IMG/VR virus record: IMGVR_UViG_2718218434_000004
Span: 1-55,227 of that record
Source: a virus
Taxonomy: Duplodnaviria; Heunggongvirae; Uroviricota; Caudoviricetes
Strand: one strand, 5' to 3'
Length of the DNA stretch: 55,227 nucleotides
Part shown: in pieces, positions 1 to 53,859 of the stretch
Layout: each line of letters starts with the position of its first letter
Position numbering within the stretch: the first letter of the stretch is position 1
Program-made: the position numbers and the translations under genes
Notes under the pieces: model-generated
Told to the model about the DNA's origin: nothing
Databases searched by the model: none
What the model saw: the letters and a program-made list of their open reading frames with translations, nothing else

Positions 1-282
1 CTACCTTTGCCTCTTGCCGCCATTTAACCGGAAGGCGTTACCGTTCGGTTGCGCTATCCCCATGCGGTGTTGCGTTTCGGTAACAGCTTTATGCAGGTCG
101 CCAAATTCCTCAACCTTCACGGGCGGGCGCTTCACGTTCTCCAGACACGTTTCACGGCGGCGCTTTATCCATTCCCGATCATCGTCCTCGGTGCATAACA
201 GCATGACTTCCATCCATCGTGCGGCAGCTCTCCGGTATAGCCCTTTTGACTCCAGCTCTTCAGCTTTCCTGTCCCTTATCAT
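1..282 (-). CDS. PerC-family transcriptional regulator-like protein
   Basis: 93-aa ORF, TAG stop at 1-3; EELESKGLYRRAAARWMEV motif shared with ORF 45139-45633 (EELESRGLYRRAATVWMAAF). Confidence 0.5.
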   Translation of the reverse strand: MIRDRKAEELESKGLYRRAAARWMEVMLLCTEDDDREWIKRRRETCLENVKRPPVKVEEFGDLHKAVTETQHRMGIAQPNGNAFRLNGGKRQR

Positions 283-318
283 TTCTGCCTCTCAGATTAT
301 ATAGATAAGCAAAAAGGT

Positions 319-439
319 GTTGGTTCAGTTGGTTCAGTTGGTTCAATTTGTAAAGAGTATTGTTTTTAAAAGAATTATTCGCAAAAAGTGAACCAACACA
401 CCCCATTTTTGAACCAACAAAAAGAGGCCGTGAACCAAC
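319..439. repeat. Iteron cluster: 3 tandem GTTGGTTCA (319-345) and 3 inverted copies TGAACCAAC at 21-bp phasing (389, 410, 431)
   Basis: Perfect 9-mers read directly from the sequence in an intergenic region; the 21-bp spacing puts sites on one face of the helix. Confidence 0.6.
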
Positions 440-513
440 ACGCCGTTTAAAAACCGCTAATTATGAGGGACATTCACCAGCACAGGGCTTGTCTAGTGCT
501 GGTTAGGTGCTGC

Positions 514-1775: not shown

Positions 1776-2156
1776 TCACACCAGATACATGTGATTGGTG
1801 TACCCGCATAAAACATCGTCATAGCGCGTCCTGTGCGCATATACGCCGATAATCAACACATCACCACCACTCTGTCTCATGTAGAGAACAGTTTTATGGT
1901 ATCCCCCCGCCATCGTGTGCATACTGGTCGGACGTAGTTGCAAAATTTTTTGCAACTGATACCCCTCGCGCGCGTACTTGTCTCGAAATTGGTGTTTTGC
2001 TGTGGCAGTGATATCAGAAAAATCTTCCTGTTTCACATAAAGCGGATATGCGCGTACTGTAACGGCCCCATCAACGGGGATCGGATTTGAAATCCCGACC
2101 CAAGCTATGTACCAAATGCCATGTCTTGGATATATGATGATTGCCATTCTAAACAA
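1776..2156 (-). CDS. hypothetical protein (doubtful; may be a decayed gene)
   Basis: 126-aa ORF in a coding-poor stretch; a 16-bp segment of it (1967-1982) is duplicated at 1680-1695. Confidence 0.2.
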   Translation of the reverse strand: MFRMAIIIYPRHGIWYIAWVGISNPIPVDGAVTVRAYPLYVKQEDFSDITATAKHQFRDKYAREGYQLQKILQLRPTSMHTMAGGYHKTVLYMRQSGGDVLIIGVYAHRTRYDDVLCGYTNHMYLV

Positions 2157-2175
2157 CGCTAAAGGGAGGGTTGGT

Positions 2176-2574
2176 GTGAATCAATTGAAGCGATTGGTTG
2201 TCTCCGGTTTATTATTTGCTTCTTTTGGAGCGAACGCTGAATGCTGGATTATTGGTGATCTGAAAGGACAAGAAGCCTCAAGTTCAGATGGGTATAACTA
2301 TAAGTTATCATCTATACCAGATACATTTCATTTGGTAATAAGTAAAGAGAAGGCGGATCTTATCTTGGCAAAAGATGGTATAGGTGGAGGTATTGATTAT
2401 TACCCGCTATCTCCGAATGCCATGATGGGAAGAAGCTATCGAGATGGTCAACTGACGCTTGTCACATGGGCAATCTCAAATGACGGAAAAGTGATCCATA
2501 CACGAACAATTAGTCGATCTGATATAGGCTCATTTACAGGCTCATTTGTCGGCAATGTTAAAGGCAAGTGTTAA
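2176..2574 (+). CDS. secreted protein of unknown function (signal peptide)
   Basis: AGGGAGG RBS then GTG at 2176; N-terminus NQLKRLVVSGLLFASFGANA is a signal-peptide pattern. Confidence 0.45.
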   Translation: MNQLKRLVVSGLLFASFGANAECWIIGDLKGQEASSSDGYNYKLSSIPDTFHLVISKEKADLILAKDGIGGGIDYYPLSPNAMMGRSYRDGQLTLVTWAISNDGKVIHTRTISRSDIGSFTGSFVGNVKGKC

Positions 2575-2635
2575 TGTTCATAACTATTTGAAAAAATACT
2601 AATTACTATTATAACCAACCATCCATGGTCATCTG

Positions 2636-4741
2636 TTATTGAGCTTCCTTTTGCGATGCTTGTGCTGCTGTGGTCAGTGATTGTGTGACCGTACTGATCG
2701 CTCTGTCATATGCTGTGCTACCTTTTGGCGTATTTGCCAGACGTAACAAGGCATTTCGTATAACAGGGCTTTCGTATGCCTTCGCTGCTCCGCCTACGGC
2801 ACCAGCAGCAGGAACAACAAACGCAGCCGTTTTTAGCATCCCCGCTAATACTGCTGCGTTTATGATGCCACCACCAACTAACAATCCATAAAGCTGCTGA
2901 CCATTTAAGTTTTGAACGTTCGCTTTTGCCGCGTGTCTTGTATCGTTGAGGTATTTAATAACGCCGTCCAGTTCCTTTCCATGTACGCCTTTAAAGAAAG
3001 TTGCTGATTGCTTCCTGTTCCGGTGTAACGCATTAATAAACTTCTCAACACTGATATTTCCAGACGGATCAGTCGCCTTATCTACAGCATTCTGAACTAT
3101 GGCTGCTCGTGCGTTTTGCCTACCATTGTCATCCAGAAGCCTGTAAAGCTGAGAACGTTCTGATGGGCTTTGGCTAAAAACGAGTTTTGTTACATCCTCA
3201 GGCGTGGCCTTGCCGCTGGCTATTGCCTTTTGAACGCGCGTTCTTCCCATCATGTCATTGAATTTAGACCATGAGCGATCAACCCTTGCCATATTAATGG
3301 CTTCGTCTGCTCCAAGATTTTTGGCTACGGCTTTTTTCATATCCGCCGTATATGCCTTGTAGATAATATCGCTGGCTTTCTGGAGCGTATCTTTATCAAC
3401 AGTGTCAGATGACGCCATAAATCGCTTTCGAAGATCGGTTCTGTTTTCCCTCGCCAGACGCAGGTCATTTGGTCCGCTGGTGATATCGTCTTTAAATTGC
3501 TGCAAGACTTTTACCGCGGCTCTATCCTGAGATTTGCCCGGGCGGCTTAACACGGCAATCTGATTGTCGATAGCTTTTACCGTGTTTGAGAGATCGACAG
3601 GGGTATCCCCCATAGCGTCAATTATGCGGTTATATCGCTTTCCTGCTGCCTCAATGAATTTTTGTTGCCCTTTAGTCGCAGATTCATAAAGCTGTTTATC
3701 AGAAATGCCACCCAGACCATCGCTAAATGTTCTGACTAAATTTTCTCGTGCTTGTTGTTGATTCAGCCGATTCTTACCGGTTCCAAAAAAAGGAACTCTT
3801 TCGCCTAATGTCTGAGCCTGACTCTGCATAAAGGTTTTATCTTTCAGCATGTCACTGGTCATTAACGGCAGATTTCTTTCCGATGCAAAGTTGACAGCAG
3901 CCTTTGCTTCAGGCGACATATCACCACGAACAGCCCTCGAAACCGCACTCGCTGTATTTTCCAGCCCCTTACCAATACCACCAATGCCAGCAGAAATTAC
4001 CGTTTGTAACGGATCAATATCTTCTCCACCAGCAAGGCTGGTGGCTCCCTGTAGTGCTAAATCTGTAGCTGCTGATTTTCCTATGGCACCAAGCACCGTT
4101 CCAGCCCTGCCCGCTGGTGTAAACGCCAGCGCATTAGCCAGAAACGATGCCACGTCTTGCGGCGATAAACCCGGCTTGTTCAGAGCATAATCACCGGATG
4201 GCAGGGAAACGATAGTGTTACCCTTCTCATCCTGCCTTAATTTCGCTCCCATGCTCTGAAGAATCTTTTCCTGAGATGCGTCAGAGCCGAAAAGTTGAGA
4301 CCATCGAGCTTTTAGAGCATCCATGCTGAGTGAGGTTAACTCTGGGGCAAAGTCGACATTTTGCAGTCTCTCCATCTCTGGAGTCATTCGGCTTTCGCCT
4401 GTTATAGCATCGCGCATAGCAGCCCCAAGACTGGCTCCCTGTTCTGCTGAACGCTCAAGCCCCTCTCTTTGCTGAGTAGCTAACTTTGCATACCCTGACG
4501 CAAGAGAATTATCAGATGATGTATGTTGAATATTTTGAGTTGCTGATTGGGATCGGTCTATTTCATTCGTTGATGGTAGTGGATAGGCAGCATAAAAAGC
4601 CTGCTTAGCCTGCTCTACACTTTCTCCGGCTTGCGGGGCAACGACTTCATTGAAGTATTGCTCCTGAGCCTGCGCTTTTTGTTCTGGTGCTAACGCCTGA
4701 TACTGTGGAGAGGCGATAACATCTTTCCATGCTTTAGCCAT
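2636..4741 (-). CDS. uncharacterised 701-aa helical protein with C-terminal Gly/Ala-rich hydrophobic segment
   Basis: Long ORF translationally coupled to the upstream 246-aa ORF; no Walker A motif; segment LLVGGGIINAAVLAGMLKTAAFVVPAAGAVGGAA near the C-terminus. Confidence 0.6.
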   Translation of the reverse strand: MAKAWKDVIASPQYQALAPEQKAQAQEQYFNEVVAPQAGESVEQAKQAFYAAYPLPSTNEIDRSQSATQNIQHTSSDNSLASGYAKLATQQREGLERSAEQGASLGAAMRDAITGESRMTPEMERLQNVDFAPELTSLSMDALKARWSQLFGSDASQEKILQSMGAKLRQDEKGNTIVSLPSGDYALNKPGLSPQDVASFLANALAFTPAGRAGTVLGAIGKSAATDLALQGATSLAGGEDIDPLQTVISAGIGGIGKGLENTASAVSRAVRGDMSPEAKAAVNFASERNLPLMTSDMLKDKTFMQSQAQTLGERVPFFGTGKNRLNQQQARENLVRTFSDGLGGISDKQLYESATKGQQKFIEAAGKRYNRIIDAMGDTPVDLSNTVKAIDNQIAVLSRPGKSQDRAAVKVLQQFKDDITSGPNDLRLARENRTDLRKRFMASSDTVDKDTLQKASDIIYKAYTADMKKAVAKNLGADEAINMARVDRSWSKFNDMMGRTRVQKAIASGKATPEDVTKLVFSQSPSERSQLYRLLDDNGRQNARAAIVQNAVDKATDPSGNISVEKFINALHRNRKQSATFFKGVHGKELDGVIKYLNDTRHAAKANVQNLNGQQLYGLLVGGGIINAAVLAGMLKTAAFVVPAAGAVGGAAKAYESPVIRNALLRLANTPKGSTAYDRAISTVTQSLTTAAQASQKEAQ

Positions 4742-5481
4742 TAATCACCCCATAGTGAAGAAAAGTTACTGCTGGCTGCTGGCTGTGATACCTGCTCAGA
4801 TTGCGGCAATGTCTGCGACGAAGAAGAAGTTCCTCTGTCAACTGCTGAAATAACCCGCAAAGCATCATAAGCTCGACCAGAAGCAGCTTTCAGCGAATTG
4901 AACTGGTTTTCCATCTTCCGGCGCTTGGTATCAATGGTTTTTGTGGAGTCGCCAGGCTGAGGGAAATACATTTGATAATATTTTGACATTTCAGCAGGTG
5001 CGATAGCTGCCCCTGTTTCCTGACGGAGTATTGCCATTATTGCGTCATTAGCATTAACAACGTATTGCTGCTCTGTTGGGCTGAGCGTTAAGTTAGCCAG
5101 CGTCCCATTACCCAAAGCATTATTAATGATCGCCACTCGCTGTGGGCTAAGCTGGTCTTTCAGTGTATCTATTGAATCAAGAGCATCCCTAACCCTGTAT
5201 GCAAATCCAGCAGCTTTTTTAGCCCCTTCTGGCGACTTTTCCATGATCTTTTGGGCTGTTGGCAAAGCTATTGGACGAAACCCATCTCCAGATATTGGCT
5301 GGTTTAGTTTTCCCTGCTCTTCACTTCCGTCTGTGTAGTATTTTGTGACAGTGCCATCATCGTTTTCTCTAACACTCATTAATTTTTTGGCGTTTGTATT
5401 AATTCCAGCCGCTGCCGCAAATGCCGCCGCCCCCTCTGGATCCGCCTTTAACATTTGAGCGTACTGATTGTAATTCTGCAT
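4741..5481 (-). CDS. uncharacterised 246-aa protein, same operon as the primase
   Basis: ORF starts 27 bp after the primase stop and overlaps the start of the 701-aa ORF. Confidence 0.55.
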
Positions 5482-5507
5482 TGCTGCTGTTGGTGCATAT
5501 GCTGACG

Positions 5508-6857
5508 TTAACGCATTTGCTCGGCTACCCCACCAGCTTTAAGTGTGCGCCATCCTTCACGTTCACCAATATCAGCCAGTGGAATGGCAGCGGTTGTCGG
5601 CGTTTCAGAACCAAACGACAGCCAGCGAAGAATGAGATACTGGTCTTTATCGTCTCTGCCAGTACCGATAACGCTTAACGGAGAACATAACCAGCTTTCG
5701 TTATTGATGATTTCTCCACTCTGGCTGTCAGCTCTCGGAGATACCCAATAAATACCATCCTCGCGGCTTTCTATTCTTGGTTTCAGTGGGTCGGTATCCA
5801 TAACCTTAAAATCGCTTCCCTCAATGGTCTGTGGCTCCTGTTTCACGCCATTACCCTGTGGTTGGTACATTGACTTATTGAACGCTTCTGTGGCGCATTT
5901 AATGCCGTGTTTTTGGTGGTAATCATTCCAGTCTGCTTTGTGATCTGTCGGGGGTAATGCCACCCATCCAGAAACAGATAAAGCTGCTTTTTCTGCTGCT
6001 ATTCTCCCCGTGTTTTGTCTTCCTTCGCTGTGGTCGTTATCCGCAGCAATGATGATTTGTGCTGAAGGAAATTTATCCCGCAGTACCTGGGCGACATATA
6101 ACAGGTTCCCGGCATCAATCGCCGCCACTGTCAGCGCCTCTGGACGAATTAAATGGGCAGATAATGCCGTTGCCAGCCCTTCTGCGATTAAGATGCTCTG
6201 TGTTGTTTCTGGCGCGTTTATGGCGTGATATGCCCCCCGCTTTGCTGAACCTGTCAGGAGTCTTTTTTCACCATGTGATGTAATAGTCTGTGCTGCTGTG
6301 ACTGCGCCGGATTTATCCACCAGCGCCAGCAACAGAGATCCATCGGGCAACACGGGGAATGTAAAATCACCTACCCCTTTCGCAACCAGATAATCAGATT
6401 TGCCGTTTACAGCCTTTCTGCGCATGTCATCAAACTGACGGGAAAACGTATCCCGTCTTTGTTGTTCGTCCTTCTCTGCTCTTTTCAGGCGCTCCTGTTC
6501 GCGTCGCTGGCGCTCGGTTTCCAGTTGTTCCCGTTTCTGGCTGGTGGCTTCTGGTGTTTCCGTTGTCCGGTAATCAATACCCAGAACATCAGCGGCAAGA
6601 AGCGCCGCCTCTGTTGTGTCGCAGTTATTTACGCGTTTAATTAAATCCAGCCCATCACCAGCGCCGCACTGATTACAGATGAAGCTACCGCGCCCGTTGT
6701 CATCGAACCGGAATCGATCTTTGCCCCCACATGCAGGGCAGGGAGCATGACGGCGCGGAGAGTCAGGGACATTTATGTTCAGGCAGCCCAGCACATGAGG
6801 CCAGTTGTTTTCAGACGCACTGATAACCTGACGGATAAGATCAATGTTTCGCATCAC
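5508..6857 (-). CDS. DNA primase (zinc-ribbon plus Toprim, P4 alpha N-terminal-like; no helicase domain)
   Basis: [14 protein letters not shown]...[12 protein letters not shown] zinc-binding motif and Toprim-like [17 protein letters not shown] in a 449-aa ORF. Confidence 0.7.
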
Positions 6858-7212
6858 CGTACCCCACGTGGTCTATAGCGTTTGCGATATGGCTAACCAG
6901 CATCTGCCACTTGGTTATTCCGTAATCAGTCAGCATGCCATCATTGTTTAGCCACATATCAAATTCAGCGGTTGTCGCAAGTTTCCACTTATCGCCGTGG
7001 ACAGTCCTCATTGCTGGGTACATGAATGCGCAAATCAGATCACAAACATCTGACGGCTTCAGAGATGTAGTAATGGTGCGTCCCTCTGGCGTCTGAATTG
7101 CCATTTTCTCTTCACCAGTAGAATGAAGGTTATGAATCCACACAGCACCAGCAATCTTTGCCACCTGCTCTCCGATTGCGGAGCTAAGCGCCATTTCTGC
7201 ATTTTCACGCAT
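6841..7212 (-). CDS. hypothetical protein
   Basis: 123-aa ORF in a tightly packed same-strand array upstream of the primase. Confidence 0.4.
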   Translation of the reverse strand: MRENAEMALSSAIGEQVAKIAGAVWIHNLHSTGEEKMAIQTPEGRTITTSLKPSDVCDLICAFMYPAMRTVHGDKWKLATTAEFDMWLNNDGMLTDYGITKWQMLVSHIANAIDHVGYGDAKH

Positions 7213-7546
7213 GAGAACCTCCCGCTACAGTTGCGCCCATGTCATTAACCATGCTTTGCCATATCTCACGCCCGACGTCAGTCAATCCGTCCTTAGTGAC
7301 GCAACGCTCAAGAAGCTCGATCCCCACGGTTTCCCACTGCGGGTAGAACACTTTCATGGCTGCCAGTGTGTAGCTATCGATCAGGCTGCGAACGCCTTTT
7401 ACTCCATTAACGATTTCCACACGTACGGCCTCGCCGTCCGCATCAACCATGAAATAGTCCCCGCCGCTGGTGGAGGTAATGTGGTTATACAGTGCCGACG
7501 CATACTTATTTGCCAGCGCATTCAGTCGGAAATTTTTAGTAATCAT
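7205..7546 (-). CDS. hypothetical protein
   Basis: 113-aa ORF, overlapping gene junctions typical of phage operons. Confidence 0.4.
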   Translation of the reverse strand: MITKNFRLNALANKYASALYNHITSTSGGDYFMVDADGEAVRVEIVNGVKGVRSLIDSYTLAAMKVFYPQWETVGIELLERCVTKDGLTDVGREIWQSMVNDMGATVAGGSHA

Positions 7547-7556
7547 GGCTCCATCC

Positions 7557-8159
7557 TCAGTGCGTCACTGGTTCCGCTGGCATGCCGTTTTCATTCAGTT
7601 CAGCTATAAAGCTGTTGTGAAGTTCAGCAAGCGTTTCACGACCAAATGGAGTCAGTGCTCCTTGTTCCACATCCATCATGGCTCTGTAGAAAATGATGGC
7701 GCGTTCTGTGCCAGACTCGATGCCAAAACGTTCTATCATCGCTCCCTCAATGTTGTTTGCCATAGCGAGGCGCTCTGCTACTGGATACAGCGGCATGGCG
7801 ACGATGCCGTTGGAATAAACAGCCACTTCGGAAGGATTGCCAGTATCATCAATGATGCTGACAGTGCCGTTTTCCTCTCTCATTTCCAGCATGAATACTG
7901 TTGCGATCAGCCATCTCCACATAATGACGTTATGCTGTGATGTGTAATCGAAATATCCCTGGTTGCCGCCATCGGCAATAGCGAGATGTATTGACATACC
8001 TTCATCTGGTTTATCGTCATAATCCCCGGCATCCAGACGATTTACGGCATCAATATATGAGACGGCCTCAACGCGTTCTGTCATGCCATCGTTGCTGCGG
8101 TACATGATGTTTACGCCGTCAGGCGTTGCTTCTGTATGGAAAGTTAAGAAATTATTCAT
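7557..8159 (-). CDS. hypothetical protein
   Basis: Start set at internal ATG (MNNFLTF...) just after the upstream gene's stop; the longer ORF would overlap it. Confidence 0.4.
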   Translation of the reverse strand: MNNFLTFHTEATPDGVNIMYRSNDGMTERVEAVSYIDAVNRLDAGDYDDKPDEGMSIHLAIADGGNQGYFDYTSQHNVIMWRWLIATVFMLEMREENGTVSIIDDTGNPSEVAVYSNGIVAMPLYPVAERLAMANNIEGAMIERFGIESGTERAIIFYRAMMDVEQGALTPFGRETLAELHNSFIAELNENGMPAEPVTH

Positions 8160-8373
8160 GTTTCGCCTCGCCTGAATGATTCTGTAACTCATATTTGCCC
8201 AACAATTCGTCCGCTTCATGAATAGCTTCTGGTACGCCATTGAGCAGTGACATAACCGCGCCAATCATTAACTTGTCTCTGTTGCTGGGGCTGGCCCCTT
8301 CAAGCCAGAACCCTAAAACAGTCTGAACCTGTTCGATGCGACATTGCGCTTCAATGAGCTGGATGTTGGTCAT
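8152..8373 (-). CDS. hypothetical small protein
   Basis: 73-aa ORF in the same-strand array. Confidence 0.35.
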   Translation of the reverse strand: MTNIQLIEAQCRIEQVQTVLGFWLEGASPSNRDKLMIGAVMSLLNGVPEAIHEADELLGKYELQNHSGEAKHE

Positions 8374-8633
8374 TTCGCACTCTCCACATCGATTAAACCG
8401 ATATCTATCAGGGAGGTAACTTTTTGTAGCCAGCTATTGATTACTGTCGCCTGTTCCCCGCCCACCGAGGGAACAATCTCATTCATCACATGAACCAGAC
8501 CTGTGCGCGCTCTGGTAAGCCGTTCAGTCGCGCAATCTGCGGGAGTGAATGTGTCTGGATATGGCTCTTCACGCCCCAGCAATGATTCAATTTCCAGCTC
8601 ACACGGATGACGATAAATTAAGTTGATATTCAT
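8370..8633 (-). CDS. hypothetical small protein
   Basis: 87-aa ORF, 4-bp overlap with neighbours. Confidence 0.35.
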   Translation of the reverse strand: MNINLIYRHPCELEIESLLGREEPYPDTFTPADCATERLTRARTGLVHVMNEIVPSVGGEQATVINSWLQKVTSLIDIGLIDVESAK

Positions 8634-8824
8634 TTTTCACCACCAAGAATTACCAGCTCTGCACGGGCATCGTTAACCAAAGATGAGCACGCTTTAATCG
8701 CATCCACGACATCAGCAGCGTCCATTTCTTCAGCCGAAAGACTGACAGCAACCAGGACAGCCGCTGCTTGCTCGATTAATTGAAGTGCGGACGTAAGGCG
8801 AGGGGTATTAATTGAGTTATTCAT
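8630..8824 (-). CDS. hypothetical small protein
   Basis: Start set at MNNSINTPRL; overlaps the stop of the upstream gene. Confidence 0.35.
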   Translation of the reverse strand: MNNSINTPRLTSALQLIEQAAAVLVAVSLSAEEMDAADVVDAIKACSSLVNDARAELVILGGEK

Positions 8825-9035
8825 TGGTTGCCCCCGTTTTGCATGGCATTTGTCCACCTTCCAGCAGGAAATGAACGTCACGAACGGCGAGGTCCAATAT
8901 CGCGAGTAACGCCTTCAGTTTTTCGTCTCGTGAGGGAGAGTTGCTCACCAGAATGTCATTAATCACTTCTGTCAGTGTGATGATCTGGCTTGTGCGTTCG
9001 AGGGGGTCCATATGCACATCGTAGGTTTTAATCAT
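8817..9035 (-). CDS. hypothetical small protein (C-terminal part of the 355-aa ORF)
   Basis: Internal ATG at 9035 preceded by a GGAGGTGG RBS; downstream 72 aa look protein-like. Confidence 0.4.
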   Translation of the reverse strand: MIKTYDVHMDPLERTSQIITLTEVINDILVSNSPSRDEKLKALLAILDLAVRDVHFLLEGGQMPCKTGATNE

Positions 9036-9884
9036 GTGCCACCTCCATGCGGATACGACCAGCAAAAAAGCAGATGTGATCGCGCACCAGAGAACGGCGA
9101 GCATCGCGTTCAGACTCGGCAGCAATATGATGAATTTTGGCGGTAATTGTCGGGCAATCGCGGCGAACTGCGGCGATAATCCAGATAAATTGCGTTTTTT
9201 GGGTAGGGGTAGTAGCCAGCATGTGGCAGCCTCCTTCAGATAGCAGGTTACGCTACCACCGGAAACGCCAATTTCGCTGGTGGTAGCCCAGACAGGGTTG
9301 GCGTAACCGGCTCTGAAGGATACCGGCGCTTCCGAAGAAGCCCCCGCCTGAGCCACCATTGATTGACAAAGGCGCTGGATTATACACCAACGCCCAAAAA
9401 ATGGGTGAGTCAGACCTACGACATAAAAAAAGACGCTCGGCGCGTCATATGTCGCCTTCAGAATTTTCAGGACGCCAATCCCGGCACCCGTTTTATGAGG
9501 TGCCTTATAACCATAAACCGTGTTGCCGCATAACGGCAAGCTCTTTTTTATGGACTCCGAAAACTCACTATTGGAAGAACCAGAAGCACAGTACATCGCG
9601 CTCATTTCGTTAACGTCACGCGCGTGGACGAAGGTTTTTGTGGAGTCACTACACGAGCAGAGAAAGCCATCTACGACCAGAAATTCTCTGGCATAGCCGC
9701 TGACCTTCTCAACGCTAACACCATCGACCGTAATTTCTGACATAGTTAAGGCATCCGCTCCTACCACCAGCAAATGATAAACTTTGCTTGTATCTGCTGT
9801 ATTAATGTCTGACTTTGCTGTCATATTGCTGGATTTTGGCGACATACCAGCCAGTGAAAATATCTTCTTCTGGGCGGTTAGCAT
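9036..9884 (-). CDS. hypothetical protein, 3' boundary uncertain (possibly frameshifted)
   Basis: N-terminal about 160 aa of ORF 8817-9884 look protein-like; the central part is Cys/Trp/Pro-rich like out-of-frame translation. Confidence 0.25.
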
Positions 9885-10147
9885 TTGTTAACCTCCGCGA
9901 ACTCCTTCATGAAACGTGCCAGCGGTTGTACGCATGGCGATTGATACCCGTCGCGATAAAACGTCACTCGGTTGTGAGACACGCTTTCGACAGTAACGAG
10001 TGCTCCGTGGGCATCTTTGTAGCGTTTTTGAGGTTGTGGTGTTCCTGTCGGCTTAAACATGGACCGCCTCCAGACGCTTGGCGAGCCAGCGTTGCGACAG
10101 GCGGGTGAGTTCTCCTTTGCGCTGCTCATATTCCATGCCCATATCAA
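9878..10147 (-). CDS. hypothetical small protein
   Basis: 89-aa ORF between the antirepressor and the small-gene array. Confidence 0.3.
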   Translation of the reverse strand: MIWAWNMSSAKENSPACRNAGSPSVWRRSMFKPTGTPQPQKRYKDAHGALVTVESVSHNRVTFYRDGYQSPCVQPLARFMKEFAEVNKC

Positions 10148-10886
10148 TTAACGTGATATTGGTGCTTTCGAGATATGAGAGGTGCTCAAGCTGTTCTGCG
10201 TTCATATGGTCGCGAGGTTCGCCAGAATAGCCATTTATCCGCGCCCACTGCTTAGCAGTTAGCCCACCAAGAACGATACGAGAAATCATATTGCTCTCGT
10301 TTGTGTAGTGGTGTTGCTGCGTCGTTTTCCCCATCTCGGCACGGGCCATATTCAGCGCATCGCACATTGGCTTAAAGTTGTTTGCGGCACTGATACGGGC
10401 TTTTAGCTGGCGACGATAGCGGGCGGCGATTTCAGGCACGCTACGCTGTAATTCTTCCTCGCACTGGATGAAATAACGACGGATAGCGCGACCCTGATCA
10501 TTGCGTTCGATCATTGCCAGTTCTTTCGCCATTCCGACACTTAACAGATAGTCTTTGCCGGGTCTGCCAGACTGCTTAATCTTGCTGTAAGCCGCGCCAT
10601 TCGGGCTTTTCCCCAAATTTGGGGAAATTGTTTTATGGACTGAGTAATCGTGCCCAATGGTGAAGTCATATTCAGAGATGCGATCAGTGATCCATGTAGA
10701 GAAGTCTTTTCCCACGCCCAACGCTTTGTGTAACGCTTTTGCGCTAACAATATTGGTTTCACGCCCACCGATATGACCAGGAATAACCGGGACAATTGCG
10801 GCAAATTCATTACCGTTAATTGTGCCCAGAGAGGCGTTCAGATGAGGGGCAGCCTCAGAAATTAATCTGCTTTTTTCGATGTTCAT
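10053..10886 (-). CDS. phage antirepressor (AntA/AntB N-terminal plus KilA-C type)
   Basis: 277-aa ORF; sequence pattern consistent with Ant/KilAC antirepressors (recalled, not searched). Confidence 0.55.
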   Translation of the reverse strand: MNIEKSRLISEAAPHLNASLGTINGNEFAAIVPVIPGHIGGRETNIVSAKALHKALGVGKDFSTWITDRISEYDFTIGHDYSVHKTISPNLGKSPNGAAYSKIKQSGRPGKDYLLSVGMAKELAMIERNDQGRAIRRYFIQCEEELQRSVPEIAARYRRQLKARISAANNFKPMCDALNMARAEMGKTTQQHHYTNESNMISRIVLGGLTAKQWARINGYSGEPRDHMNAEQLEHLSYLESTNITLIDMGMEYEQRKGELTRLSQRWLAKRLEAVHV

Positions 10887-10898
10887 TTTCAGTCTCCG

Positions 10899-11330
10899 TT
10901 AGGCGGCGTTAAACGCGTCCGGGTAGAGTTTCAGAATGTCGGCAATTTCCTGCTGAGAAAGTCCGTTGTGATCATTTATGTTCGCAAGATGGTTAATATG
11001 AGTGATCACTTTCAGAACATCACCACGGCAGGAGAAACGGTAGCGAAGGTGTGTTCCGATACCATCAGGATTCTTTTCGTCGATACGCTCCAGAGTGATT
11101 CCAAGCTGGCGTTCTAACTCTGTTGCATAGTTACGACCAGAAGACAGACGGCAGTAGCGAAGAATGTCGTTTTCTGTCCATCCCTCTATACCAGTTCGCA
11201 GCATATAGACTCGGGCACGATGCTTTTTCGGTGTGCGCTTTGGTGCTTGAAGGGATTTTGTAAGGGGCGTAATATCAGATACGCGAATATCTGAATTAGC
11301 CGCCTGTAATGGGCGGTTTTTCTTTTCCAT
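10899..11330 (-). CDS. hypothetical protein (basic N-terminus, possible DNA-binding regulator)
   Basis: 143-aa ORF immediately downstream of alpA in the same operon. Confidence 0.4.
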   Translation of the reverse strand: MEKKNRPLQAANSDIRVSDITPLTKSLQAPKRTPKKHRARVYMLRTGIEGWTENDILRYCRLSSGRNYATELERQLGITLERIDEKNPDGIGTHLRYRFSCRGDVLKVITHINHLANINDHNGLSQQEIADILKLYPDAFNAA

Positions 11331-11533
11331 CAGGCCACCTCGTCTCTAGATTCTAATATACACTTCTCAATCCATTCATCTATTTCAGACTCAACAAAAG
11401 CAATAGCCCGACTTCCAATTTTTACCTGTTTAGGGAACCTCCCCTGACTAATAAGACGATAAATCCATGCTTTGCTATAACCAGTTCGCCTTTGAACTTC
11501 AGAGAGACGAATTAATGAATTGTAATTAGCCAT
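11330..11533 (-). CDS. alpA: AlpA-family transcriptional regulator / excisionase-like
   Basis: 67 aa, LIRLSEVQRRTGYSKAWIYRLISQGRFPKQVKIGSRAIAF; sits beside a P4-type integrase as in CP4-57. Confidence 0.65.
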   Translation of the reverse strand: MANYNSLIRLSEVQRRTGYSKAWIYRLISQGRFPKQVKIGSRAIAFVESEIDEWIEKCILESRDEVA

Positions 11534-11960: not shown

Positions 11961-13175
11961 TCATGCGTGTTTTTCAAACACCATATGCACCACATTTCCG
12001 CCATGCTCGAGAGAATCCATATAGTCGGCATACCATTGAAGCATCTCCCGCCTTCCATCCAGATATTGCGCATGGTTGTATGTGCCACGAATTGAGTTCT
12101 TATCAACGTGAGCGAGCTGAGTTTCTATCCACGCAGTGTTATAGCCCTGCTCATGCAAAATCGTACTCATAGTGTGCCGGAACCCATGACCAGTTACACG
12201 TCCAGCGTAGCCAATGCGCTTAAACACTTGGTTTATGCTGGCCTCACTCATTGTTTTCCTTGGATCATTGCGCCCGGGAAACATAAGAGGGTAATTGCCT
12301 GTTATTTCTCTAATCTTCCCAATAAGCGAAAGAGCCTGCTCAGACAATGGCACAATATGAGGCCGCCGCATTTTCATACGTGAAGCGGGTATCTCCCAGA
12401 TAGCCTTGTTGAAATCAATTTCATCCCATAATGCGCCACGTAGTTCGCCAGTTCGCAAGCCGGTGATAATCAGTAGACGAGCCGCCATAACAACCAATGC
12501 GCTTCCTGAGTAACTGGACAATGCCTTGAAAAAATCAGGTAATTCTTTGGCTGTAAGGAAAGGGTAATGATTAGATTCATGGCCTTGCATCGCGCTAGTA
12601 AGGTCTGGTGCAGGGTTATACTCTGCGCGACCAGTGACTATTGCATAGCGGAAAACTTCCCCGCACCGCTGCCTCACTTTTTTGGCTTTTTCTGTAGCAC
12701 CTCGCCCCTCGATGCGCCGCAGCACATTCAGAAGTTCAAGTGGTTTGATTTCGGCGATTGGTTTTTTGCCAATGTAAGGGAACACATCTTTGTTGAAGGC
12801 TTCGAGGATGTCTGAAGCATAACCAGCAGACCATTTTTTTAATTTGCTGCTGTGCCACTCAAGGGCAATATCTTTGAAGGTGTTGTTTAACTGCGTTTCC
12901 CGGGCAATCTTTTCCTCTCGTTTCGCTTCCATCGGATCGATACCACCAGCGATACCTCTTTTCGCATCTTCACGTTTTGCCCGAGCATCGGCTAGAGTAA
13001 CCTCAGGATACACACCTAGTGCCAATAGCTTCTCTTTACCAGCTACACGATATTTAAGTCGCCAGTATTTACCTCCATTAGGTTTTACCAAGAGATACAA
13101 ACCGCCACCATCGGCCAGCTTGTAAGCCTTCTCTTTTGGCTTGGCTGTGTCTATTTGACGGGCATTGAGTTTCAC
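11961..13175 (-). CDS. int: P4-family tyrosine integrase
   Basis: 404 aa; N-terminus MKLNARQIDTAKPKEKAYKLADGGGLYLLVKPNGGKYWRLKYR is the P4/CP4-57 integrase signature; C-terminal R..H..R..Y catalytic region. Confidence 0.85.
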   Translation of the reverse strand: MKLNARQIDTAKPKEKAYKLADGGGLYLLVKPNGGKYWRLKYRVAGKEKLLALGVYPEVTLADARAKREDAKRGIAGGIDPMEAKREEKIARETQLNNTFKDIALEWHSSKLKKWSAGYASDILEAFNKDVFPYIGKKPIAEIKPLELLNVLRRIEGRGATEKAKKVRQRCGEVFRYAIVTGRAEYNPAPDLTSAMQGHESNHYPFLTAKELPDFFKALSSYSGSALVVMAARLLIITGLRTGELRGALWDEIDFNKAIWEIPASRMKMRRPHIVPLSEQALSLIGKIREITGNYPLMFPGRNDPRKTMSEASINQVFKRIGYAGRVTGHGFRHTMSTILHEQGYNTAWIETQLAHVDKNSIRGTYNHAQYLDGRREMLQWYADYMDSLEHGGNVVHMVFEKHA

Positions 13176-13338: not shown

Positions 13339-13386
13339 AATGGTGCCGATAATAGGAGTCGAACCTACGACCTTCGCATTACGAAT
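13339..13386. repeat. att site: 48-bp direct repeat of the thrW 3' end (junction between element A and prophage B)
   Basis: Identical to 53782-53829; sequence diverges immediately outside both copies. Confidence 0.85.
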
Positions 13387-53781: not shown

Positions 53782-53829
53782 AATGGTGCCGATAATAGGA
53801 GTCGAACCTACGACCTTCGCATTACGAAT
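53782..53829. repeat. att site: 48-bp thrW 3'-end repeat (tRNA-proximal copy)
   Basis: Identical to 13339-13386. Confidence 0.85.
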
Positions 53830-53859
53830 GCGCTGCTCTACCAACTGAGCTATATCGGC
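53784..53859 (-). tRNA. thrW: tRNA-Thr (anticodon CGU)
   Basis: 76-nt reverse complement GCCGATATAGCTCAGTTGGTAGAGCAGCGCATTCGTAATGCGAAGGTCGTAGGTTCGACTCCTATTATCGGCACCA folds as a cloverleaf with CGT anticodon and CCA end. Confidence 0.9.

Follow-up and report, generated by a model that had tools for sequence, protein, structure and literature searches.

The left end of the window, by which is meant the whole 55,227-nt stretch of viral DNA that was analysed, is occupied by a PICI. Its features, from the left edge inward, are the following.

1..282, (-): PerC-family regulator of the PICI (PGAP, WP_000617443.1, the same accession as in EcCIMP1 of MP1)
312..441: iteron cluster, GTTGGTTCA three times and then TGAACCAAC three times (pattern positions 319/328/337 and 389/410/431)
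2107..2574, (+): small secreted protein of 132-155 aa, depending on the start codon (phrog_2651, E 2e-22)
2636-4741, (-): 701-aa ORF, assigned as an intact P22 gp16-family ejection/injection protein (phrog_770, tblastn, PF26808 cluster)
4741..5526, (-): remnant of a gp20-family ejection gene, C-terminal 261 codons, a pseudogene (phrog_917, identity to the N1193/L013 protein)
4741-5481, (-): 246-aa ORF, read after the first internal ATG of the gp20 remnant
5526/5527: deletion junction, truncated primase fused to truncated gp20 (blastn breakpoints, 2-bp 'TA' microhomology)
5508-6857, (-): truncated PICI replicase, a 449-aa ORF with a Zn-ribbon primase, Toprim and the first ~80 residues of DUF927
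6841..11533, (-): PICI early and regulatory genes, namely small hypotheticals, Ash-family, DUF4222, AntA/AntB antirepressor and AlpA-like HTH (PGAP)
11961..13175, (-): PICI tyrosine integrase (WP_000772643.1, the accession of the EcCIMP1 integrase)
13339..13386: 48-bp att repeat, a perfect copy of 53782-53829 (blastn-short)

The element extends past the left edge of the window. It has the EcCIMP1-type order of integrase, AlpA-like gene, replicase, PerC gene and att repeat, and capsid, tail and lysis genes are absent from it. EcCIMP1 is the PICI of E. coli MP1, with the Lederbergvirus Kapi1 as its helper, and its excision and transfer occur only with Kapi1 (Pick, Stadel & Raivio, ISME J 2025; PMC11773190). 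The two elements share a thrW-side locus, identical accessions for the integrase, AlpA-like, DUF4222 and PerC proteins, and ejection genes located after the primase; the region 6841..11533 is colinear with EcCIMP1 at 97.8% nucleotide identity, and identity outside the cassette is 97.8-99%. The att repeat has its source in the 3' part of the tRNA-Thr region (tRNA-Thr at 53784-53859). On this sequence evidence, the element belongs to the EcCIMP1 family, whose members are satellites of P22-like podophages; it is a defective copy and is integrated at thrW. It differs from EcCIMP1 itself, however, in that the primase of the latter (918 aa) is intact and its cassette whole, comprising DUF2824, a gp7-like protein, a gp20-like protein of 439 aa and a gp16-like protein of 906 aa that has a lytic-transglycosylase domain, whereas the primase of the window is truncated and its cassette is another allele, with no gp14 or gp7 and with half of gp20.

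There are similarities to P4, another integrase-bearing satellite with a Zn-ribbon/Toprim primase-helicase. The iteron region at 312..441 is 80% identical, in inverted orientation, to the iterons just after the primase stop in intact elements, and is best read as the surviving second copy of origin-like repeats. The presence of two separated iteron clusters in PICIs of this type is reminiscent of P4 ori/crr. However, the PICI family has a DUF927 helicase region that is not of the P4 type, its helper is a P22-like podovirus rather than the P2-like myovirus used by P4, and what it carries for morphogenesis is ejection proteins instead of capsid-size determinants. The annotations of the RefSeq record identical to the window (NZ_CP010137.1, from E. 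coli D2) include no Sid, Psu or Delta genes.

The product of the gene at 2107..2574, located just downstream of the gp16 gene on the opposite strand, has a signal-peptide-like N-terminus and shares ~30% identity with Sf6 gene 38 and with the gene next to cI in phage 434. Judged by coordinates alone, its homologues in phages Emek and ST-35 occupy roughly the same place with respect to the ejection genes, and in other PICIs and one P22-like prophage other small envelope proteins fill the slot. The gene occupies the sieA-equivalent moron slot. The possibility that the small membrane protein downstream of gp16 is a SieA homologue was considered and rejected. A promoter and terminator scan of 2000-7400 gave results at background level, and blastn against phages detected no helper-derived late promoter or similar element in the replicase-to-cassette intergenic region.

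The 701-aa protein

Residues 19-700 of the 701-aa protein match positions 3-667 of the 668 in the 'DNA transfer protein' profile phrog_770 (PHROG search, E 2.9e-161). In tblastn searches, the protein is matched by Lederbergvirus N7 (67%), Sf6 gene 13 (33%, E 3e-79) and P22 gene 16 (30%, E 2e-38). A cluster 96% identical to it (P0001) has a precomputed assignment to PF26808 (Phage_P22_gp16), and the PGAP names for the family are 'injection protein' and 'P22-gp16 family phage DNA ejection protein'. The 701-aa protein also shares 90% amino acid identity with the gp16 of L008, a P22-like prophage that is complete and has genes for portal, coat, gp4, gp10, needle and tailspike. It is mosaic over its N-terminal ~70 residues: residues 1-54 share 74% identity with the start of HK620 gp16, and the remainder is of the N7/prophage type; identity to the EcCIMP1-type gp16 is 23%.

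The gene closes the ejection cluster, directly 3' of a gp20 homologue, as in the P22-like prophages (L008, L015-L019). The window genes resemble gp7, gp20 and gp16 of P22, Sf6 and HK620 in sequence, in size, in the hydrophobic C-terminal region of gp16 and in the gp20-then-gp16 order with overlapping stop and start codons, but they are located on a satellite without portal, coat, tail or lysis genes, and gp20 is truncated. Homology thus identifies the 701-aa protein as a full-length member of the P22 gp16 family of ejection proteins.

In P22, gp7, gp20 and gp16 are packed into procapsids, are expelled before the DNA and build a trans-envelope conduit in which gp7 lies at the tail, gp20 forms the periplasmic tube and gp16 is located at the inner membrane. 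By analogy, the 701-aa protein would belong at the inner-membrane end of such a podovirus DNA-delivery conduit. A hydrophobic Gly/Ala-rich stretch toward its C-terminus (residues ~615-653, 40% G+A, Kyte-Doolittle >1.2) fits the predicted gp16-like membrane role.

An earlier note on this DNA gave correct coordinates and lengths for the 701-aa, 246-aa and primase ORFs, and its description of the larger protein as helical with a Gly/Ala-rich hydrophobic segment agrees with the stretch just described and with a mostly helical prediction. It also described both proteins as lacking Walker motifs, and a motif search for Walker A and B found none in either. Its view that the pair belongs to no assignable family has been superseded: the 701-aa protein is confidently homologous to a known structural protein, that of the gp16 family, and the 246-aa protein corresponds to the C-terminal half of the gp20 family.

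Local Pfam and NCBIfam scans yielded nothing useful for either ORF, and no helicase match; the local Pfam copy does not contain the PF26808 model, and the half of gp20 that Pfam covers is deleted in the window. A replicative helicase was ruled out for the 701-aa protein, which has neither Walker motifs nor a Pfam or NCBIfam helicase match. A lytic transglycosylase domain, suggested by the label of phrog_29864, was likewise rejected, there being no Pfam SLT match; the only such match is in the 906-aa EcCIMP1 gp16 allele. No structural inference is drawn from AlphaFold2 and Foldseek: the model, built from a 31-sequence alignment, is poor (mean pLDDT 57.9, pTM 0.36; only residues ~330-600 moderately confident), and Foldseek found no match in the PDB at E <= 0.001. 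Searching the PDB by sequence, with the 701-aa protein or the intact gp20 homologue as query, brought up no relatives.

Truncated primase and gp20 remnant

The primase ORF comprises 443 native codons, after which it runs out of frame into the gp20 gene for 5 codons (AEQMR*). Pfam detects Zn_Ribbon_Prim and Toprim_3 in it; the intact homologue is 918 aa long and has DUF927 at residues 365-643. When the window is compared by blastn with three related loci (L004, L002 and L003), the alignment breaks at 5526/5527 in all three. Compared with N1193 the window lacks 2045 bp; compared with STIN_95 it lacks 2870 bp, and compared with the intact L013 type ~4 kb. Among 5426 complete genomes, a 300-bp probe spanning the junction is contiguous only in E. 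coli D2, in whose record the primase and the 246-aa region are each annotated by PGAP as a partial pseudogene.

The gp20 remnant matches positions 243-504 of the 509 in phrog_917 (PHROG search, E 4.7e-23) and is 100% identical to residues 213-473 of the intact 473-aa N1193/L013 protein. The 246-aa ORF corresponds to residues ~228-473 of that protein, its start being an internal Met 15 codons past the scar. The Pfam Inj_translocase domain (PF16928), residues 34-213 of the intact homologue, is deleted; the full length of the family (~440-490 aa) and its N-terminal Inj_translocase domain are missing from the window, while the C-terminal half is homologous. PGAP annotates the region as partial and, wrongly, as an 'acyltransferase'. 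The 246-aa ORF is the C-terminal half of an ejection gene of the gp20 family (the periplasmic tube protein family) and not a gene itself. The gp20 sequence of the window descends from a member of this family but is only a piece of the gene.

Primase codon 443 was joined to gp20 codon ~212 by an illegitimate deletion, with microhomology of 2 bp. The material lost comprises the DUF927 helicase region, the primase-proximal iterons, a small RHH-like ORF, gp14, gp7 and half of gp20. The earlier note read this arrangement as a primase lacking a helicase and translationally coupled to the two following genes. The 246-aa and 701-aa ORFs do share a 1-nt TAATG overlap, as gp20 and gp16 do in P22-like prophages, but the primase and the 246-aa ORF are not coupled, being separated by a 26-nt gap without an obvious Shine-Dalgarno sequence. 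The helicase is indeed absent, but this is not a natural state of the primase, which lacks it because the deletion fused codon 443 to the middle of gp20. Nor does the 246-aa protein stand as a gene, being a pseudogene remnant read from an internal Met. The helicase-less primase and the coupled pair are a strain-specific deletion scar, not a designed operon.

The window contains no functional replication module: of the 918 primase codons 443 remain, and the iterons next to the primase are gone. Since these iterons and the helicase region have been deleted, the D2 element is very probably unable to replicate. Its ejection module is also incomplete, a remnant in which any function is residual at most. 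The region has been damaged more than once, as illustrated by the D2 deletion, the N1193 deletion and an IS-disrupted copy (L009).

Ejection cassettes in E. coli islands

Intact relatives of the element encode a replicase (Zn-ribbon/Toprim/DUF927) and an iteron origin, followed by either gp14(DUF2824)-gp7-gp20-gp16 or gp20-gp16; the intact L013 cassette carries PF26808, PF16928, PF25688 and PF11039. The primase is found in 361 of 5426 E. coli genomes. Linkage of primase and cassette, for which the earlier note had suggested a neighbourhood survey, proved to be common: the two are contiguous in at least 249 of the 5426 complete genomes, with the recurring order replicase, iterons, small ORF, cassette, moron, PerC. 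The cassette occurs at two sites, thrW and yicC/dinD, and behind two replicase types, DUF927 and DUF5906. Island cassettes are never accompanied by portal, coat, tail or tailspike genes. Their ORFs are intact, with dN/dS values of 0.16-0.31 between PICI alleles (0.16 for the 701-aa gp16 against another PICI allele), and a cryptic-clade Escherichia genome also carries the cassette. These patterns argue that it is a maintained module of satellites, not debris; ejection cassettes of the P22 type, in several alleles, are thus regularly conserved in a satellite family that is common in E. coli. Genes for gp7 and gp14 are absent from many islands, and the cassette therefore cannot build a whole conduit alone.

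A search of genome contigs with a profile of the gp16 alignment returned three loci (an Escherichia PICI, a Morganella P22-like prophage and a MAG), too few for a cross-genus survey. The low dN/dS values could come in part from phage donors through recent recombination. Repeated deletion of the region could mean that selection on it is weak, which would speak against a function for the cassette.

Possible roles of the cassette

The locus as a whole is in all likelihood a defective EcCIMP1-family PICI in which a deletion scar is followed by a gp20 remnant and an intact gp16 gene with a putative conduit role. It is largely explained, and it is not new. The earlier note proposed a candidate novel module; what is present is an ejection gene of a known family and a remnant, and the 'DNA transfer' genes of EcCIMP1, like the satellite family itself, have already been described (PMC11773190). 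As a known ejection protein and a gene fragment in a crippled island, the window itself matters little.

In intact islands, satellite ejection proteins would be produced when the helper is induced and would enter the capsids that it builds. The conduit specified by the satellite would then serve particles with island DNA and possibly helper virions as well. What the satellite would probably gain is delivery into recipients that block the helper's own conduit, for example by SieA-type exclusion, which is gp20/gp16-specific. The roles of P22 gp20 and gp16 and the interchangeability of divergent ejection proteins in P22 hybrids have been described, and SieA escape mutations map to gp16 and gp20 (PMC10461980). 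The authors of the EcCIMP1 study call its ejection genes only candidates for 'packaging', and report that its transfer by Kapi1 is rare and that helper titres are unchanged (PMC11773190). Tentatively, it may be that the EcCIMP1 family practises piracy of an undescribed kind, supplying helper-built P22-like particles with its own conduit (gp20 and gp16, sometimes gp14 and gp7) instead of resizing capsids or redirecting packaging. Recipient range would be altered, for example through SieA evasion, the adjacent envelope-protein slot would be the exclusion arm, and the window would be a decayed example. If this is true, exchange by a satellite of its helper's DNA-delivery conduit would be a new piracy strategy, and would give a handle on the co-evolution of ejection-protein diversity and SieA-type exclusion.

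It is unlikely, but worth weighing, that the cassette of intact islands serves interference or defence, either by poisoning helper virions with mixed, non-functional conduits or, if the proteins are expressed by the resident cell, by jamming the conduit of incoming P22-like phages (superinfection exclusion). EcCIMP1 does add superinfection immunity against Kapi1 and has no known defence system (PMC11773190); that immunity, however, could equally be due to the small envelope proteins encoded in the moron slot next to the cassette. The earlier note had pictured the position as a satellite slot for helper exploitation or anti-phage functions. It is a satellite slot following the replicase, and it holds virion genes, which implies exploitation of phages, and not replication genes; as for defence, PADLOC gave no family match for the 701-aa, 246-aa or 155-aa proteins. 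Island alleles are often far from phage alleles (no sequenced phage exceeds 52% identity to EcCIMP1 gp16, and the 701-aa and EcCIMP1 types are as distant from each other as noted above), and divergent alleles mixed in homomultimeric tubes could disrupt them, but very divergent ejection proteins substitute in P22 hybrids (PMC10461980). Moreover, EcCIMP1 does not reduce Kapi1 titres after induction or after infection of non-lysogens (PMC11773190), and it is hard to see how ejection proteins in the cytoplasm would reach an incoming conduit in the periplasm.

Very improbably, the cassette is accidental debris, the remnant of a P22-like prophage beside the island, fused to it by deletion and without a role in its life cycle. 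The gp16 allele of the window is 93% identical in nucleotide sequence to the allele of a true P22-like prophage, deletions and IS insertions affect the region, and the arrangement in the window is truly a deletion product. However, debris would not be expected to keep one position across at least 249 genomes, whichever of two integration sites and two replicase types the island has, with portal, coat, tail and tailspike genes never alongside, with intact ORFs and a dN/dS of ~0.16, and in a cryptic-clade Escherichia genome as well. That the pair is a novel module outside the known replication, capsid-redirection and defence families, as the earlier note held, is scarcely credible: the local Pfam/NCBIfam scans are blank for both ORFs and no solved structure matches by sequence or fold, but there are full-length PHROG matches, PF26808 and PF16928 assignments, PGAP names and synteny with P22-like prophages.

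Proteins encoded beside the primase

The window sequence matches E. coli D2 (NZ_CP010137.1) at 100% identity, and its three reading frames have the positions and lengths that the earlier note gave them.

Features of the island in the window
2107-2574, + strand: sieA position of P22, directly downstream of gp16 on the opposite strand; interchangeable small envelope proteins
2636-4741, - strand: 701-aa ORF, assigned to the P22 gp16 family
4741-5481, - strand: 246-aa ORF, C-terminal remnant of a gp20-family gene
5508-6857, - strand: primase ORF, 449 aa, Zn-ribbon/Toprim
13339-13386: the island's 48-bp att copy

The pair downstream of the primase had been considered unassignable, but its sequence places the 701-aa protein, over its full length, in the P22 gp16 ejection-protein family. 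In a profile search it matches PHROG 770 ('DNA transfer protein') end to end (E 2.9e-161), and PF26808 (Phage_P22_gp16) is found on its 96%-identical cluster, which has 2417 member sequences in a large protein collection. The 163 phage records matched by tblastn are nearly all P22-like podophages or their relatives, including Lederbergvirus N7/HZ41 (67%), Sf6 gene 13 (33%, E 3e-79) and P22 gene 16 (30%, E 2e-38). A gp16 with 90% amino acid identity is encoded by the complete P22-like argW prophage of strain 01_3327, alongside terminase, portal, scaffold, coat, gp4, gp10, needle, DUF2824, gp7-like, gp20-like and tailspike genes, and the 52-76% homologues (Salmonella, Citrobacter, Klebsiella and a metagenome) all lie within P22-like morphogenesis clusters. 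D2 is annotated by PGAP with an 'injection protein' here, and with partial pseudogenes for the primase and the 246-aa region.

The 246-aa ORF matches PHROG 917 (gp20 family) in its C-terminal half only, at positions 243-504 of 509. Close relatives encode an intact protein of 473 aa; its residues 213-473 are identical to the remnant, and Pfam Inj_translocase covers its residues 34-213, the part absent from the window. The gp20 frame resumes at a deletion scar, and the ORF begins at the first internal methionine. In D2 and some other genomes, PGAP labels this gene (RG35_RS19890, window 4741-5526) an 'acyltransferase' pseudogene; the label looks like an annotation error, since the sequence is identical to 'phage DNA ejection protein' genes.

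Other descriptions of the pair stood: neither protein has Walker motifs, and the larger is predicted to be mostly helix, with a Gly/Ala-rich hydrophobic segment at approximately residues 615-653. Scans of both ORFs against NCBIfam and a Pfam copy without PF26808 gave nothing useful, PDB sequence searches with the 701-aa protein and the intact gp20 homologue found no relatives, and the low-confidence AlphaFold model of the former had no Foldseek matches. PADLOC found no defence-family match for the 701-aa, 246-aa or 155-aa protein, and a profile search of genome contigs with gp16 was nearly empty. A 7.9-kb contig from a metagenome-assembled genome labelled Phnomibacter sp. (DATIEA010000002.1, Bacteroidota assignment) carries homologues of P22-like gp10, needle, gp7, gp16 and tailspike, with at most 52% identity to the enterobacterial proteins; binning may have placed it there in error, or it may derive from a phage.

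The deletion and the intact islands

The element matches EcCIMP1, the PICI of E. coli MP1, in its locus, in the order of its genes and in a number of protein accessions (integrase, AlpA-like HTH, DUF4222, PerC), and is a defective copy of this already known type. Excision and transfer of EcCIMP1 have been shown experimentally, only with the P22-like Lederbergvirus Kapi1, and the genes after its primase, noted there as similar to Kapi1 proteins, were coloured 'DNA transfer' and called packaging candidates (PMC11773190). The gene context had been read correctly as a satellite's slot for helper exploitation.

In comparisons with N1193 (99.9% identical), STIN_95 and MP1, the alignment always breaks at window 5526/5527, where the flanks have only 'TA' in common. 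The window primase keeps 443 of 918 codons and ends in five more that are read out of frame from the gp20 gene (AEQMR*). Of 5426 complete E. coli genomes, D2 is the only one in which a 300-bp probe spanning the scar is contiguous. Compared with L013, an island of intact architecture, the element has lost its helicase region (DUF927), the iteron cluster that directly follows the primase stop (GTTGGTTCA x3 facing TGAACCAAC x3), a 53-aa ORF, the homologues of gp14 (DUF2824) and gp7, and gp20's N-terminal half. The arrangement previously taken as native, a primase without helicase coupled to two further ORFs, is therefore a scar; of the proposed coupling, the TAATG overlap at the 246/701 boundary survives, and the earlier observation is confirmed in part. 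Judged from these sequences, the island in the window is very probably replication-dead.

Intact islands have two such iteron blocks, one right after the primase stop (L013 4711-4823) and one inverted, approximately 80% identical and adjoining PerC (window 312-441), and the ejection cassette is therefore bracketed. The PerC-side block alone survives in D2. We take this pair to resemble the ori/crr pair of P4. Always ahead of the cassette in intact islands is a conserved 53-57-aa ORF (L013 5270-5431, L002 16212-16385; MAISVKPVLISEKQMEAIKKIQEE...HEIARGL), absent from the window by deletion. It has no PHROG or Pfam match; by eye it looks like a ribbon-helix-helix (Arc/Mnt-like) pattern, and it may be a cassette regulator.

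Between the island and thrW lies a complete tandem prophage of approximately 40 kb (13387-53783), with an HK97-type capsid, contractile tail and baseplate, an integrase of its own, a pinE invertase with cassettes for tail fibres, and yfdN, a second gene of the PerC family. It does not belong to the P22-like phages, which makes a role as helper of the island unlikely.

Distribution of the cassette in E. coli

Of 5426 complete E. coli genomes, 361 contain the primase (coverage >=80%), and at least 249 have it contiguous with the cassette. The cassette takes a four-gene form, gp14-gp7-gp20-gp16 (L013, L010, MP1, L027), or a two-gene form, gp20-gp16 (STIN_95, AR202.2, L028); it is found at thrW and yicC/dinD, behind a DUF927- or DUF5906-type replicase. 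Its alleles are diverse, the 701-aa and the 906-aa EcCIMP1 gp16 types being 23% identical, and island-borne 701-aa alleles have a dN/dS of 0.16 (87 synonymous, 50 non-synonymous differences). From this prevalence, the two forms, sites and replicases, the allele diversity and the dN/dS, we argue that the satellite family maintains the cassette as a module and that it is not debris.

In two islands (L027 9001-17799, L028 8001-15838), a DUF5906 protein and two extra small ORFs replace the Toprim-DUF927 protein on the same backbone with the cassette, and the replication module is therefore exchanged modularly. Cassette decay is recurrent (D2, N1193 and an IS-disrupted copy). N1193, the closest relative, has its own separate deletion (L004 13829-13834), which took out the iterons, 53-aa ORF and gp14 and left a primase, truncated at its C-terminus, fused directly to the gp7 homologue; another island, L009, has IS3 insertions in the replicase-cassette region. 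The junction of replicase and cassette seems liable to decay.

Possible role and the adjacent envelope-protein slot

The P22 procapsid takes up gp7, gp20 and gp16, which are expelled ahead of the DNA and build a trans-envelope conduit, with gp20 forming the periplasmic tube and gp16 at the inner membrane (PMC10461980; PMC8954989). Few virion genes are as variable as genes 16 and 20, highly divergent versions of them are interchangeable in P22 hybrids, and mutations escaping SieA, an inner-membrane exclusion protein, fall in the C-terminal regions of both products (PMC10461980). It may be that intact islands load their own gp20 and gp16, with or without gp7 and gp14, into helper-built capsids. 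The conduit would then be specified by the satellite, and a plausible gain would be entry to recipients that exclude the helper's conduit. Alternatively, island gp20 and gp16 could act in interference or exclusion; a cassette without function is the other rival, against which stands the reading as a maintained module. Since gp16 alone is intact in the window, any activity there would be residual. Why a satellite family keeps ejection-protein cassettes is a moderately interesting question, and one that concerns the family, not the window copy.

In the slot beside gp16, the window encodes a secreted protein (132-155 aa, phrog_2651) that shares approximately 30% identity with Sf6 gene 38 and with the gene next to cI in phage 434. 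Multi-TM proteins of 116-129 aa, 84% identical to each other, occupy it in another PICI (L009 11593-11982) and in the 01_3327 prophage, a true P22-like one (L008 11633-11983), and EcCIMP1 has a 232-aa lipoprotein there (L003 14632-15330). These different cargos have the first approximately 15 codons and the upstream DNA in common, and the slot proteins are candidates for the source of EcCIMP1 superinfection immunity.
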